From an uncultured candidate division Zixibacteria bacterium (GTDB lineage Bacteria > Zixibacteria > MSB-5A5 > UBA10806 > 4484-95), in NCBI GenBank assembly GCA_963668625.2, contig CAXXKA010000008.1, forward strand, positions 96,001 to 160,000: a stretch of 64,000 nucleotides of DNA, in the 5' to 3' direction. The notes below the pieces were generated by a model. That model made no database searches, was not told the origin of the DNA, and saw nothing but the letters and a program-made list of their open reading frames with translations. How positions within the stretch are numbered: position 1 is the first letter of the stretch; every line of letters starts with the position of its first letter. The position numbers and the translations under genes were made by a program. Shown piece after piece: positions 16,249 through 36,942 of the stretch.

Positions 16249-16365
16249 AAATTAACTGATAAATCTAGATAAATCGACAATAGTAATTGCCACATTTATA
16301 ATATTTATGTATAATATTTATGACACGGTTCAACAATAAAATTCAATATCAACCGGGAGAATTAC

Positions 16366-31876: not shown

Positions 31877-31950
31877 TTAATAACGTTTTCTGATAGATTC
31901 CATTTCGGGGAACATCGTTCATAAAATTACCTATAATCTATATATATATT

Positions 31951-32205
31951 CACTACTGTCCGGTCTTTTCATCTCGTTGCGAAGCGCTGCTTCGCAACGT
32001 GGCTTGTTTGCCGGCAGAATGCGCATTCTACATGATTCAAGAAGGTTTCCAAGCAGCGCTTGGAAACCAGAAAACCAAGCCTAACATCGGCAGGATATGT
32101 CAGGATGAATGATACGCTGAATAAAATAATTATATCGGAAAATATTTTTCATTAACAATTCCAAGGAGAAATTTAAAATTTAACGAAAAACACCGGACAC
32201 TAGTG
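31951..32205 (-). mobile_element. MITE family A, full copy
   Basis: CACTACTGTCCGG ... CCGGACACTAGTG with perfect 9-bp TSD ATATATATT. Confidence 0.92.
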
Positions 32206-32237
32206 ATATATATTGAACCTTTAGTGAAGGAGTATCT

Positions 32238-32993
32238 ATGCTAATCCTGAGAAAGCCTTTCGCGATCGTATTCTCTTTAGTTATCATGATGGCCGTAACG
32301 GCATCCGCAGAAGGGACTATTAAAGTAGAGGGCAAATCCTCGGTGAAATTCGCGCCGGATGAGGTAACGATTACCGTGGTGGTGGAAAATTTCGATGATA
32401 ACCTTACAACAGCCAGGCTACAGACCGACAAACAGGTGGCCGGTATTTTAAGTGTAGTGCAGGATTACAACGTAAAACCCGGACACGTACAGACCAGCCA
32501 TTTAAACATAAACAAGAGCTATGAAAATTATCAAAAGAAAGATAAAGTCGAGGGTTACCGGATAGCCAAGACTATCTCGATAACTATAACCGATATGTCA
32601 CAGTTCGATAAAATCATCACCGATATACTCGGACTTGGAGCCGAGCAGATTTTCAATATGAAATTCAAATCCTCCCGTTTTCATGAATATCGGAAAGAGG
32701 CTGTAACACTGGCGGTGCGGTCGGCAAAAGATAAGGCTACGGCGATGATCGCGGAACTGGGTAAAAGCCTGGGCGAACCGGTTAATATAACGGAAAATTA
32801 CGCCGAGCTGGTCGATAATAATCCGATGCCATTGAGCTCGAGATACCGTTTTATGGATGATGGCCTTATGATGGGTGGAGCATTCAATGCGGTGTCCAGC
32901 CATGGCGAGAATCAATCATATGGAACGGCCAGTATGGCTTCCGGGCAGTTGGTAATTAATGCCTCGGTGACAGTTGAGTTTTTGATAGAGTAA
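32238..32993 (+). CDS. SIMPL (DUF541) periplasmic protein
   Basis: Signal peptide; I.V.G......PD, A...AK.KA and V.V.F motifs. Confidence 0.88.
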   Translation: MLILRKPFAIVFSLVIMMAVTASAEGTIKVEGKSSVKFAPDEVTITVVVENFDDNLTTARLQTDKQVAGILSVVQDYNVKPGHVQTSHLNINKSYENYQKKDKVEGYRIAKTISITITDMSQFDKIITDILGLGAEQIFNMKFKSSRFHEYRKEAVTLAVRSAKDKATAMIAELGKSLGEPVNITENYAELVDNNPMPLSSRYRFMDDGLMMGGAFNAVSSHGENQSYGTASMASGQLVINASVTVEFLIE

Positions 32994-33168: not shown

Positions 33169-34158
33169 TCATGTTCGGTTTTCACGATTAACATTGATTA
33201 TCACTTTACCCCGGGCATGTCCCTCTATGAGATACCCGATAGCCTGTGGCACCTCCGCTAACGAATAGCGTTTGTCTATAACCGGTTTTACTTTGCCGGT
33301 TTCTAAAAGCTCTGCCATGAAATTCAGATCATCCCCGTTAGGATGTTCCACGAACGTTCTCATCCTCTTACCGCCACTGATCGAAAGCAGTGGCGCGAGC
33401 GCTATTGCTTGAAACATCTGGGCTCCGTCGCCACCCGACATGACATATATGCCGTTATCGGTTAAAGCACGCCTGTAGCGCCATAAAGGCTGAAATCCGT
33501 TGACAGCGTAAATGATATCGTAGCGCTGGCCGCTCTCGGTGAAATCAGTTTTAGTATAATCGATCACATGATCCGCGCCGAGTGAACGCGCCATCACTAA
33601 TTTCCCGGTGCTACAAACAGCGGTAGTTTCAGCCCCGAATACTTTAGCGAGTTGCACCGCAAAAGTACCTACTCCCCCCGAGGCGCCGTTTATCAACACT
33701 TTCTGCCCTGGCTTTATACGCGCCTTATCGCGTAGCCCCTGGAGGGCCGTGAGCGCCGCCATCGGTACGGCAGCCGCCTCCTCGAAAGTGATACCGGCAG
33801 GTTTCAATGCCAGTAATTTCTCGCTGGTACAAGCGTACTCGGCAAATCCCCCGATTCCGCGAATGGAGGTATCTCCGAAAACCTCATCCCCCGGCTTGAA
33901 TTTCGTGACCTTTGCTCCAACCGATTCGACCCGACCGGCTATATCGGCTCCCAGTATTTGATACTTGGGCTTGAACAAGCCAAATCCGCTGAGACGAACG
34001 AGAAACGGATCGGCTTTTAACACATGCCAATCGAACGCGTTTACCGAGGCCGCTTGAACTTTCACCAGTATCTCATCAGCTCTAGGAGTTGGCCTTACTC
34101 TCTCCTCAAGCCTGAGCACATCCGGCGAACCGTATTTATGATAGACAATTGCTTTCAT
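33169..34158 (-). CDS. NAD(P)-dependent MDR oxidoreductase (quinone reductase-like)
   Basis: YGSPDVL, VLINGASGGVG, GADHVIDY, GHARGKVII. Confidence 0.92.
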   Translation of the reverse strand: MKAIVYHKYGSPDVLRLEERVRPTPRADEILVKVQAASVNAFDWHVLKADPFLVRLSGFGLFKPKYQILGADIAGRVESVGAKVTKFKPGDEVFGDTSIRGIGGFAEYACTSEKLLALKPAGITFEEAAAVPMAALTALQGLRDKARIKPGQKVLINGASGGVGTFAVQLAKVFGAETTAVCSTGKLVMARSLGADHVIDYTKTDFTESGQRYDIIYAVNGFQPLWRYRRALTDNGIYVMSGGDGAQMFQAIALAPLLSISGGKRMRTFVEHPNGDDLNFMAELLETGKVKPVIDKRYSLAEVPQAIGYLIEGHARGKVIINVNRENRT

Positions 34159-34621
34159 GATCTTATTCTACCTTTTATTAAGTAATACTTACTGTTTCAT
34201 TACTCATATTTACCCCGGATAAGTTCCTGTGTAAGCCATATTTGGCATGGTAAATAATACTATGCAAATAGTACATATTCGTCAAACAAACGAAGTTATT
34301 TATTTATCTTTTCTTGACGAAATACTGCATGAATATATCAGGCAGGAAAGGATTCCTTCCTGCTCAGTGAATTACTATTATCCGGCCATTCTTTCTCGTT
34401 GCGAAGCGCCGCTTCGCAACGTGGCTGGCATGCCGGTAAAAGACGCATGTTACATGACTCAAGAAGGTTTCCAAGCAGCGCGTGGAAAGCATGAGAAATT
34501 AAGCGTTGGCGCGGTGGCAGGAAAGTAACTATGTTATCAAAAGCTTGAGCCTCAGTCATTCGGATTGTATTGTTATTTTGACAAACATTCAACAATCAAC
34601 ACGAACAAACAGGAGGCTCAA

Positions 34622-35680
34622 ATGCCATGTTACAACAAAATCGAGCGTGAAGCCAACACTATTTACGTTGGTATTGACGTTCATAAGCGGAGTTGGCATG
34701 TAACAATGCGAACAACTGAGCAAGAGTTATGGAAAGGCAGTATTGCAGCTGATTGGGAAGTATTGAAAAAAGTATTGGGGCGTTATTCCGATTGTGACAT
34801 TTCGGTAGTTTACGAAGCCGGTTTTAGTGGTTTCTGGTTATATGACAAACTGGTAGCCTGGGGAGCGTCATGTATAGTGACTCCGCCGAGTTTGATTCCT
34901 TCTGAATACGGCAATCGGGTCAAAACTGATCGCCTCGACAGTGCCAAGCTTGCTTTACTACTTTCCCGTAGTATGCTCAAGGCAGTATGGGTACCTGATG
35001 TCGAAGCGCGTGGTCATCGCCAGGTATTGCGTCGCCGTCGCCAGTTGGTCAGCGACCGGGTCCGTATTCAATGCCGTATCAAGAGTGAGTTAGCCTGTTT
35101 CGGTCTATCTCTGCCGACAATTAGCGGCAAGTGGACGGAGACATTCGAACAGCATTTATGGCAGTTGCGTTTTAGTGATCGCTGGCAGACAGAGAGTTTT
35201 CAGAGGTTACTGACACAGTATCGGCTGGTGAGTGAATTGATTACTCAACAGACACGGTTATTGAAAGAATTGTCAAAACTGGATCGTTATCGGGAAGCGG
35301 TTGAGCGTCTACGTAGTGTTCCGGGCATCGGCTTGTTAACGGCGATGGAACTATTATTGGAGTTAGGGGACTTCAGCCGATTTAGTCGAGGAAGCCAATT
35401 GGCCGCCTACGTGGGCTTGACTCCAAGCCAATATTCCTCCGGTGACAAGGTTCGACTAGGACGAATCACCAGGATCGGCAAACCGCAGTTACGGTCGAAT
35501 CTGATCGAAGCCTCCTGGATTTTGATCAGGAAGGATCCGGCCCAGGCTCAGCGTTATCAACAGCTCAAGTGGCGGTGTGGTTCCAAACGAGCCATTGTGG
35601 CCAGTGCCCGCCGTCTACTGTTAATCGTACGGCGTCTGATGCTTGACCATCAGAGCTATCGAATCCAAACCGCAGCATAA
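34622..35680 (+). CDS. IS110-family recombinase/transposase
   Basis: DEDD residues (GIDVHK, YEAG, KTDRLD), VPGIG, GLTPSQYSSG serine loop; AGGAGG RBS at 34611. Confidence 0.96.
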   Translation: MPCYNKIEREANTIYVGIDVHKRSWHVTMRTTEQELWKGSIAADWEVLKKVLGRYSDCDISVVYEAGFSGFWLYDKLVAWGASCIVTPPSLIPSEYGNRVKTDRLDSAKLALLLSRSMLKAVWVPDVEARGHRQVLRRRRQLVSDRVRIQCRIKSELACFGLSLPTISGKWTETFEQHLWQLRFSDRWQTESFQRLLTQYRLVSELITQQTRLLKELSKLDRYREAVERLRSVPGIGLLTAMELLLELGDFSRFSRGSQLAAYVGLTPSQYSSGDKVRLGRITRIGKPQLRSNLIEASWILIRKDPAQAQRYQQLKWRCGSKRAIVASARRLLLIVRRLMLDHQSYRIQTAA

Positions 35681-35704
35681 AAAAGAGATAATTAGTTTAC
35701 AATA

Positions 35705-35905
35705 TCTGAGTTTGGAGAATGGCGAAGGAATCCTTGTGGCTTAACAACAGACCGCGCAGGAAAGGGTGTCATCTCCCCTGGTAATAATCTCGGATTGATT
35801 AATTGTGGCTGTGTTTGAGGGCCAGACCACGAATAGCAGGGTGACTATTATCGGCAATGTCTAACAGTGGCAGCATGTTGTAGTTTAAACATGGGTATTC
35901 TGCGT
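35705..35905 (+). ncRNA. Candidate bridge RNA / seekRNA of the IS element (ends approximate)
   Basis: Two parallel modules TTGTGGCT-loop-AGACCRC-[9 nt]-GGTG; the 9-mers match the target left flank (GCAGGAAAG, 9/9) and the donor junction (ATAGCAG, 7/9). Confidence 0.8.
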
Positions 35906-35957
35906 TTTATTAAGAAAAGGAGAAATCGATATAACAATACTAACCGAACAATATCAC

Positions 35958-35963
35958 TTGACA
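35958..35963 (+). promoter_or_regulatory. -35 half of circle-junction promoter (pairs with -10 TATGTT at 34530-34535)
   Basis: TTGACA + 13 nt right end + 4 nt left end = 17-bp spacer to TATGTT. Confidence 0.8.
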
Positions 35964-36102
35964 TGATACATAGCAGGATTTTTGCCACCACAGAGTTTTT
36001 TTCAACATTCGCAACGAGAAGATTAAGTCCGGGCACGAGTGAAAACATGATGAATATAGTATGGATCGAGGATTTAGAAATACAGTCAATTCGAATACGA
36101 TT

Positions 36103-36942
36103 CTAAGATAGCGACAGCACTCTAATCAGATTTTCGCAACCGCCGTTAGCGATATATTCCGAATGTTCGTTTATAGAATTAAAACTGCGTCCGCATATCT
36201 CGCGACACAATATTTTTTGGTTGGTTTCATCATAAAACGCTTTTAAAATATTCTCCGCTTCCTGATTCCGAATTGCGGACTTATCATTTCCCTGCTCTCT
36301 GTACAGGCCAAGAGTTTTTAACCATAAAGTTGCCGCCAGTGCGCCGCACCCGTTACCACTCAAGCCCATGCCTCCGGCAAATCCGGAAACCATGGTTCTC
36401 TCCTCATCACTGGCTCCCATCTTCGTAGCAATCTCGGAGGCGCAGCTTACGGGCGGCTGAGATAAATTATCAGGTATACTTGATAAGCCCTCATAGGCGG
36501 CCTCGATTGCCTCCGGGGCCCATTTCTCGGACAGGTTGGAACAGTTACGGAATTTGCCGGTTATGAAATATTTTACGATACTGAGCTTACTCGACCAATT
36601 ACAGCCAGTGATATCAAGACAATCGGAGCTGCTTGTTCTTTGCACGAATGATTTCATGAGATTTTGAGTGGCTGCTATGGCGACAGCAATCGCCTGTCCG
36701 CGATTATCGTACCTTCGATAAGCCTCCGCTCCCACGGCCAGACTCGTACCCCAGAGCATCCCGCACTGATATCCTTTCTTCATGATTCCTCCGGCAAGCG
36801 AATCTGCGGCATGTTCCTCCTCCTCTTTTGGATAGCCGAATTCGCGGTTGAGTATGTAAAAGAAAGTGCGCGAGCAGGTACCTAATTTCTTGAATGTTTT
36901 TTTTACGTCTAGAAGTGCAGTCGTTGAATCGTTTTTACTCAA
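36103..36942 (-). CDS. C-GCAxxG-C-C family putative redox protein (two tandem domains)
   Basis: CS...GG....G.QCG...C and CA...GG.G.SGNGCGA...C...C repeats. Confidence 0.85.
   Translation of the reverse strand: MSKNDSTTALLDVKKTFKKLGTCSRTFFYILNREFGYPKEEEEHAADSLAGGIMKKGYQCGMLWGTSLAVGAEAYRRYDNRGQAIAVAIAATQNLMKSFVQRTSSSDCLDITGCNWSSKLSIVKYFITGKFRNCSNLSEKWAPEAIEAAYEGLSSIPDNLSQPPVSCASEIATKMGASDEERTMVSGFAGGMGLSGNGCGALAATLWLKTLGLYREQGNDKSAIRNQEAENILKAFYDETNQKILCREICGRSFNSINEHSEYIANGGCENLIRVLSLS

Follow-up and report, generated by a model that had tools for sequence, protein, structure and literature searches.

An insertion sequence of the IS1111 type with a probable two-loop bridge RNA whose target and donor guides co-vary with their DNA partners

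The stretch of 64,000 nucleotides analysed in this study (hereafter the window) contains, at 34526–35976 on the + strand, an insertion sequence that is very probably an RNA-guided element of the IS1111 type: its DEDD recombinase gene is followed, in a long right end, by what would be a two-loop bridge (seek) RNA of about 140 nt. As judged by sequence comparison across about 60 homologous elements, all four guide segments of this RNA, two in a target-binding loop and two in a donor-binding loop, co-vary with the DNA that they would pair with. The element is a well-supported further example of a published system plan, with a target that is new and a protein that is distant, and the known mechanism is unchanged by these results.

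Bridge/seek RNA recombinases, whose mechanism was described in 2024, are under development as programmable tools that avoid double-strand breaks, and mechanistic work has centered mostly on IS621 and ISCro4, both of the IS110 type. The present element offers a clean natural example of the IS1111 type, with five near-identical copies and a readable target of 16–18 bp, along with some 60 relatives among which the target loop has split into 43 classes and the donor loop is almost constant. In an IS1111-type clade, co-variation is seen for both donor guides (with the element ends) as well as for the target guides, and this bears on the two ways in which these RNAs have been described, namely as seekRNAs with target matches only and as bridge RNAs with matches to both target and donor.

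An Intact IS1111-Type Element in Five Copies

A blastn search of the genome with window positions 34200–36100 recovered five full-length copies of the element, on contigs C8 (the window), C6, C5, C4 and C1. Four of them are identical over a shared segment of 1460 nt, and the fifth has one substitution, at 35770, by which a G-C pair in a basal stem of the RNA becomes G-U; the transposase reading frame is open in all five. Alignment of the copies at their edges, where similarity begins and ends at identical bases, set the left junction at 34525|34526 (GCAGGAA-AG|TAACTATG, also written ...GAA-AG|TAACTATGTTATC) and the right junction at 35976|35977 (CATAGC-AG|GATTTTTG, also written ...GATACATAGC-AG|GATT...). 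Since AG alone is common to both junctions, it constitutes the core, just as an initial annotation of this region had proposed: all five insertions read ...GAA-AG|...|AG-GATT..., with AG at both junctions and the conserved motif interrupted at an equal position. With the core included the element measures 1451 bp (1449 bp plus one AG copy at 35975–35976) and is of the IS1111 type within the IS110 family. Paralogous empty sites are present in the genome. By all appearances it is an intact and recently active jumping gene of the IS1111 type.

In three public runs the contigs that hold the element break at its edges (34521 and 35971/35980), and neither a circle junction nor an empty site was seen in these contigs, which are silent on expression and excision. 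The three holders, all from one sample of one study, are contigs, and none of the runs on record as RNA holds the element.

Subterminal inverted repeats frame the element: CTATGTTATCA (34529–34539, + strand) lies 3 nt in from the left end, and TGATACATAG (35964–35973, + strand) leaves an end extension of 1 nt on the right. The former matches the reverse complement of the latter at 10 bases with one extra T, an indel because of which a repeat finder overlooked the pair and gave another repeat further inside. Non-coding sequence spans 96 nt from the left end (34526) to the ATG (34622) and 296 nt from the stop codon (35680) to the right end (35976). We also observed a longer inverted repeat of 23 nt (34559–34581 and 35926–35948, 83% complementary) about 30 nt inside each end, and a pair resembling it is visible in the relative L002. 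Separately, a solitary 64-nt right-end fragment (G000:C6:578611-578674, equivalent to window 35914–35976) lies about 2 kb from the full copy on C6, with an intact REP-like hairpin before it and GATTCCCACCACC after it.

The recombinase gene (34622–35680, + strand) encodes a protein of 352 aa from an ATG that follows GGAGG. That it codes for a recombinase of the IS110 family, as the initial annotation had surmised, was confirmed by profile searches: PF01548 (DEDD_Tnp_IS110) matches at 59.7 bits, PF02371 (Transposase_20) at 95.5 bits and the NCBIfam model NF033542 (‘IS110 family RNA-guided transposase’) at 238 bits (cut-off 140). In its C-terminal domain the protein matches ISCro4 and IS621, two transposases of solved structure (E about 4e-9; 4.9e-9 for IS621). 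Four residues that are invariant in seven homologs, D19, E65, D103 and D106, are by analogy the putative catalytic DEDD set; likewise invariant among the seven are G265, L266, P268, S272 and G274 of the motif GLTPSQYSSG, the IS1111 group being marked by GL-P----S(t)G in the C-terminal domain according to the published description (PMC11187229). The closest plasmid-borne relatives, ISSso6-family elements included, share 36–39% protein identity with it.

Upstream of the gene, TTGAGCCTC (34544–34552, near the left end) is complementary to GAGGCTCAA (34613–34621), a segment that includes the transposase gene’s Shine-Dalgarno sequence; both are conserved in L001–L003 and L005–L007. A stem formed by the two could mask the ribosome-binding site in read-through transcripts; transcripts from the predicted junction promoter considered below would start at about 34542.

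A Two-Loop RNA Maintained by Compensatory Changes

Downstream of the gene the initial annotation had described two parallel modules, and all of its motifs lie where it had placed them. The first comprises GAAGGAATCCT (35724–35734), TGTGGCT (35735–35741), AGACCGC (35749–35755) and GCAGGAAAG (35756–35764), followed by GGTG; the second comprises TGTGGCT (35804–35810), AGACCAC (35824–35830) and GAATAGCAG (35831–35839), again followed by GGTG. Co-variation supports both modules as helix-loop-helix units of an RNA core of 140 nt with two loops (35714–35853, + strand throughout), 3′ of the transposase gene. In the target-binding module (35714–35776), basal stem 1 (35714–35723 with 35768–35776) and apical stem-loop 1 (35735–35756) enclose the 5′ strand (35724–35735) and the 3′ strand (35756–35767) of loop 1. 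In the donor-binding module (35782–35853), basal stem 2 (35782–35788 with 35847–35853) and apical stem-loop 2 (35804–35831) enclose the corresponding strands of loop 2 (35789–35804 and 35832–35846).

The relatives used in this analysis comprise seven from genome contigs (L001–L007, 52–77% protein identity) and 80 from metagenome contigs (34–63%). On an alignment of the window with L001–L007 we marked four helices, i.e., a basal and an apical stem for each internal loop; here, 94.5% of the 201 cells are paired and 16 of the 26 pairs have changed on both sides. None of 500 shuffles reaches the pairing and compensatory values of this eight-sequence alignment, and sliding the partner columns by 1–3 lets pairing fall to 27–55%. 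Given no structure, RNAalifold recovers three of the four helices; for the fourth it proposes instead that an invariant GAG pairs with CTC in CTCGG, an arrangement made of invariant bases that competes with one basal-stem pair of loop 2.

A covariance model (R1), built from the same eight sequences, was run against 88 sources: 62 contain one + strand match just downstream of the transposase match (50 of these with E < 0.01), and the remaining 26 contain none at E up to 1, the 69 distant loci L008–L076 (about 30% identity) having been left out of this search. In the source genome it finds the RNA exactly five times. In the alignment of the 62 sequences, which was fitted to the R1 model, 92.3% of 1473 cells are paired and compensatory changes are seen in 25 of the 26 pairs, among them all seven basal pairs of the donor-binding module. 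Thus, all four helices are kept by compensatory changes, which is a signature of a folded single strand. Further, no variation is seen 3′ of the core complement (U, then GUGG), at the positions that would bear on handshake guides of the IS621 kind.

Folds of the single sequence are no more stable than those of shuffles (z of 0.17 for 35681–35978 and of 0.15 for 35705–35905). The minimum-energy fold was rejected as the active form: in it the two target guides pair with each other, as the target is a palindrome. An Rfam scan of 34100–36200 with E up to 10 returned unrelated families outside the RNA region, with best E values of 0.86–8.8.

The Target Loop Matches a REP-Like Hairpin

The right target guide, GAAGGAATCCTT (35724–35735, + strand), is complementary to the top strand A-AG-GATTCCTTC, and the left target guide, (G)CAGGAAAG (35756–35764, + strand), has the top-strand sequence of the left target plus core and would pair with the bottom strand. 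As the initial annotation had read them, the guides of module 1 match both target strands and overlap at the AG core, and we further find that they co-vary with the host flanks. Jointly, they specify CAGGAA-AG-GATTCCTTC (also CAGGAA-AG-GATTCCTT), a sequence that forms a REP-like hairpin loop. The left target plus core at the actual left junction (GCAGGAA-AG, 34517–34525, + strand) is identical to the guide at 9/9 positions, and the right target of the window copy, GATTTTTGC (35977–35985, + strand), matches at 6/9. Over the five copies, the left target plus core agrees with the guide at 35756–35764 in 9, 8, 9, 5 and 7 of 9 positions, and the right target agrees with the reverse complement of 35724–35735 in 6, 7, 9, 8 and 8 of 9. 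The joined flanks of the copies, e.g., GTGGCAGGAA-AG-GATTTTTGCCAC, GTGTCAGGAA-AG-GATTCCTGACAC and CCGGCAGGAA-AG-GATTCCTTCCGG, each form a palindromic REP-like hairpin loop.

On one point the earlier reading has to be revised: the contiguous 18-nt match at 34342–34359 (+ strand) is not the insertion site but a second, unoccupied perfect target (GCAGGAA-AG-GATTCCTTC) in a REP-like hairpin loop, which precedes the element by about 170 bp. At the junction itself, GCAGGAAAG is found at 34517–34525. This 9-mer occurs three times in the window (at 34342, 34517 and 35756), a count that none of 100 shuffles reaches (shuffle mean 0.32), and AGGATTCCTTC occurs exactly at 34349–34359 and, on the minus strand, at 35724–35734. 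When the genome was searched with the 16-nt guide-specified target (AG core), one exact, unoccupied site was found, along with 21 that have a single mismatch and 18 that have two, and such target-like sites lie almost all in hairpins of the form NNNNNCAGGAAAGGATTCCTGNNNNN. The family of REP-like hairpins (loop GGAAAGGATTCC) is represented in the window at 34342–34363 and at about 40 genomic sites, mostly unoccupied.

The first guide base after the stem is usually mismatched; hence, the left target guide effectively works with 5 nt plus the core, a length that equals that of the left donor guide. The 5′ target guide of the window element lies in a register shifted by one base (CTT before GTGG, as against CT in most relatives), which is shared by L087, L091, L097 and L121. 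The 43 guide classes among the 62 RNAs suggest that natural retargeting has taken place.

The Donor Loop and the Element Ends

The left donor guide, AATAGCAG (35832–35839, + strand), carries in its last 7 nt the sequence of the right end plus core (ATAGC-AG, 35970–35976). The donor match that had been ascribed to the left guide of module 2 thereby holds over seven contiguous bases, and this guide co-varies with the right end. The right guide of module 2, for which a weak match to TAA had been claimed, also stands: in the right donor guide TTAAT (35799–35803, + strand), TTA pairs with TAA, the first three bases of the left end, in the correct register, the family usually having 3–5 nt here, and the guide co-varies with the left end. 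Of its two core positions, only one pairs in the window (U), which leaves the core G mismatched. The C that would pair with this G is likewise absent from 8 of the 36 listed loci; in most of the others the C is present but one extra base stands between the C and the U, and core pairing by this guide is imperfect in most clade members. Such interrupted pairing recalls the discontiguous RDG pairing that the published accounts describe for IS621 (PMC11208160, PMC11208158).

When the 5′ strand of loop 2 was screened for longer complementarity to the 30 nt flanking the joined ends on each side, nothing consistent beyond 5 nt emerged. Donor-loop sequences are almost invariant in close relatives. Farther afield, an ISSso6-family element on an E. 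coli plasmid (36% protein identity) has a weak R1 match (11.5 bits, E 0.008), which corresponds to its 3′ non-coding region; there, the loop has GAATATCAG and the end CATATCAG, so the donor pairing is kept with a different sequence. As a separate observation, L005, L086, L093 and L107 have ATAGCGG at the right junction and ATAGCAG in the guide; thus, the core in these loci would be GG or be devoid of the A.

We mention with reserve, and consider rather unlikely, the idea that the donor loop has an asymmetry unlike the IS621 paradigm, with the right end read by a fixed 7-nt guide and the left end by only 3–5 nt with imperfect core pairing, along with a 5′ target guide in either of two registers. 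If true, this asymmetry could give the reaction a direction in which insertion prevails over re-excision; another consequence could be a minimal donor requirement and, with it, a compact scaffold that is easily re-targeted via loop 1 alone.

Co-Variation of the Guides with Their DNA Partners

Co-variation of guides with flanks across homologous elements had been set as a test before this analysis, and it was found for the target guides and the host flanks. The four loop strands were taken from the 62 RNAs and each was compared with DNA located independently of that guide, with guides from other loci (mismatched pairs) as the control; only loci with uniquely placed ends were used (37, 18 and 40 of the 62).

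To test the right target guide, we positioned the right end with the donor guide, which gave a unique placement in 37 of 62 loci. In the 31 loci that had played no part in forming the hypothesis, the target guide matches the next 8 nt of host at 7/8 or better in 19 and at 6/8 or better in 26, as compared with 15 of 2257 mismatched pairs at 7/8 or better, and the 19 loci matching at this higher level carry 19 different guide classes. Nine of the 37 fall below 6/8, including the window, L001 and L003 at 5/8 as well as L083 and L148 at 2–3 of 8, in which the end has probably been misplaced. The test of the left target guide relied on the motif AG-NNN-YTATR-NT to position the left end, which it did uniquely in 40 of the 62 loci (with 36 scorable); the guide matches the 6 nt 5′ of AG at 5/6 or better in 14 of 29 independent loci and in 18 of 2016 mismatched pairs.

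On the donor side, the left donor guide was compared with right ends placed from the right target guide alone (18 loci), a shift of −1, 0 or +1 being allowed for true and mismatched pairs alike. It matches the end at 7/7 in 10 of the 18, at 6/7 or better in 15 and at 3–4 of 7 in three, whereas none of 204 comparisons with left donor guides of other classes reaches 7/7; the guide variants ATAGAAG, ATAGGAG, ATAAGAG and GTAGAAG are each mirrored by the element end. The test of the right donor guide set positions 4–7 of the reverse-complemented 5′ strand of loop 2 against the opening 4 nt of the left end, giving a mean of 3.12/4 against 1.59 for mismatched pairs and full 4/4 agreement in 10 of 40 loci against 21 of 2252. 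The variants TAA, TTAC, TTC(C), GTAT and GTGAT are each found on the guide side and the end side alike.

Shared descent of the element cannot explain the co-variation between the target guides and the host flanks. As donor guides and ends lie within one element, the donor co-variation is more open to such an explanation.

Proposed Mechanism and Competing Explanations

We advance the following scheme. The RNA would be transcribed, processed and bound by the recombinase, and the guides of loop 1 would select CAGGAA-AG-GATTCCTT in the loop of the REP-like hairpin, of which the genome has about 40 copies. In both loops the left guides have the top-strand sequence and pair with the bottom strand, the right guides pair with the top strand, and the core lies within the pairings. 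The guides of loop 2 pair with both ends; hence, this loop would recognize the joined ends of an excised circle, its 5′ segment (TTA plus part of the core) pairing with the first bases of the left end. Strand exchange at the shared AG would then insert the element with no further duplication. The joined ends would also create a promoter, TTGACA-17 nt-TATGTT, reading into the recombinase gene and the RNA, with a predicted −35 element in the right end (35958–35963, + strand) and a predicted −10 element in the left end (34530–34535, + strand); the pattern TTGNNN-17-TATNNT spans the joined ends in 21 of the 26 relatives with both ends placed. Junction promoters are known in this family, and the predicted one fits. 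The element may also be programmable.

A competing explanation confines the guiding function to module 1, acting as a seekRNA of about 60–90 nt, with the recombinase reading the ends via the subterminal inverted repeats and module 2 serving as a protein-binding scaffold or as a part of the precursor that is processed off. The subterminal repeats do exist, the right donor guide amounts to just 3 nt and half a core, and the near-invariance of the donor loop renders it uninformative among close relatives; moreover, the published text on ISEc11 has an 82-nt short seekRNA with target matches only that, in the assay used there, is sufficient and more efficient than the 154-nt form (PMC11187229). We nevertheless hold this explanation to be improbable, given that the 7-nt left donor guide tracks the right end in distant relatives (10/18 vs. 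0/204), that changes in the first 3–5 nt of the left end are accompanied by changes in the 5′ strand of loop 2, that loop 2 has the architecture and register of loop 1, and that the ISSso6-family element pairs GAATATCAG with its end CATATCAG.

It is very hard to sustain the notion that the motifs act as DNA, i.e., as internal copies of the target and the ends that serve as recombinase-binding sites or pseudo-ends, with the helices being incidental. The left guides are indeed direct repeats of recognized DNA, as DNA-level duplicates would be, but compensatory changes keep the four helices (25/26 pairs, 62 sequences) and none of the five copies ends at an internal pseudo-end. Further, each loop has one reverse-complement and one direct guide around a stem-loop, as in the RNAs characterized in the published texts (PMC11187229, PMC11208160). 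Finally, the shortness of the motifs and the insignificant thermodynamic z-score might invite the view that these are chance matches in an ordinary 3′ untranslated region, which has next to no probability: it is effectively refuted by the failure of all 100 shuffles to reach three copies of the 9-mer and by host-flank co-variation in 19 independent guide classes.

Relationship to Published Systems

The favored reading, a recombinase with a two-loop bridge RNA, places the element among published systems. It presents the features of the IS1111 group, i.e., the DEDD N-terminal and Transposase_20 domains, the GL-P----SG motif, a longer 3′ non-coding region, subterminal inverted repeats (range 7–17 bp) with short extensions at the termini and sequence-specific insertion with no duplication beyond the core. 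It likewise presents those of the bridge/seekRNA systems: a structured two-loop RNA in the long non-coding end; loop strands that are complementary to both target strands, overlap at the core and co-vary; and a second loop complementary to the joined ends (in the window over 7 nt at one end and over 3 nt plus one core base at the other).

In the portions of the seekRNA study that deal with them, ISEc11, ISPa11, ISKpn4 and ISPst6 resemble the window element in having a DEDD transposase of about 340–350 aa with GL-P----SG, a long non-coding region 3′ of tnp, subterminal inverted repeats and a specific target, and ISPa11 too targets a repeated palindrome (PMC11187229). The IS1111 seekRNAs are described there as located 3′ of the gene, with the top-strand match 5′ of the bottom-strand match and the two overlapping in the target; the window RNA has its segments in the same arrangement (PMC11187229). 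Unlike in those elements, the transposase is only distantly related and the target sequence is different; further, guides for the donor ends are absent from the seekRNA description in these portions of the text, whereas the second loop of the window co-varies with both ends (PMC11187229). Right-before-left order, 3′ location and two pseudo-symmetric loops have all been published for IS1111 RNAs (PMC11187229, PMC11208160, PMC11208158).

The four-guide scheme was described for IS621 (PMC11208160, PMC11208158), together with the strand rules for guides and core (PMC11208160). As far as these accounts describe IS621, the window element shares with it the two pseudo-symmetric loops, the pairing of the left guide with the bottom and of the right guide with the top strand, a purine bulge beside the apical stems, a REP-type target, a homologous C-terminal domain and a comparable right donor guide, which here pairs over a short stretch with the core G mismatched and in IS621 pairs discontiguously (PMC11208160, PMC11208158). 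In contrast to IS621, whose RNA is in the left end, the window RNA lies 3′ of the gene in the right end, its guides run right then left along the RNA, the core in gene orientation is AG rather than CT, the right target guide is long (11–12 nt) and each left guide has 7 nt (PMC11208160, PMC11208158). Read on the other strand, the element would have a CT core and a left-then-right order as in IS621, which would amount to the same RNA–DNA geometry with the gene cassette inverted.

A bridge RNA has been predicted in 93% of IS1111 elements by the models of Durrant et al. (PMC11208160). Among these, ISCARN28, ISAzs32 and ISPa11 are like the window element in having a predicted bridge RNA in the right end with target and donor loops; this set was compared by legend and text, and the present clade and scaffold may be among theirs (PMC11208160).

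Other Mobile Elements in the Genome

Another IS110-family element, 1290 bp long, is present in the genome as 11 near-identical copies (e.g., G000:C8:555108-556397), none of them in the window. Guide-like modules, ..GACCTCG-TAAAGGAG-ATT.. and ..GACCTTG-AATAGGAG-TTT.., lie 5′ of its transposase gene, and on the right the element terminates in CATAGGAG. Every one of the 11 insertions is found directly after AAAGGAG and 5–7 nt before an ATG, and thus between a Shine-Dalgarno sequence and a start codon; in eight of the 11 the first ATG opens a reading frame of at least 116 aa, and the element’s own AGGAG restores the Shine-Dalgarno site. Our literature search for IS110-family elements targeting Shine-Dalgarno sites returned nothing relevant, a statement limited to that search.

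A MITE-like repeat of about 255 bp with terminal inverted repeats CACTACTGTCCGG...CCGGACACTAGTG is present in the window as a full copy (31951–32206) and a truncated one (34371–34504), with further copies near 16259, 24331, 28883, 51633 and 56291. In an Rfam scan of 31880–32260 with E up to 1 it had no match (weak unrelated ones at most). With a 201-nt probe, 113 blastn matches to this repeat were found in the genome, many of the copies being nearly identical.
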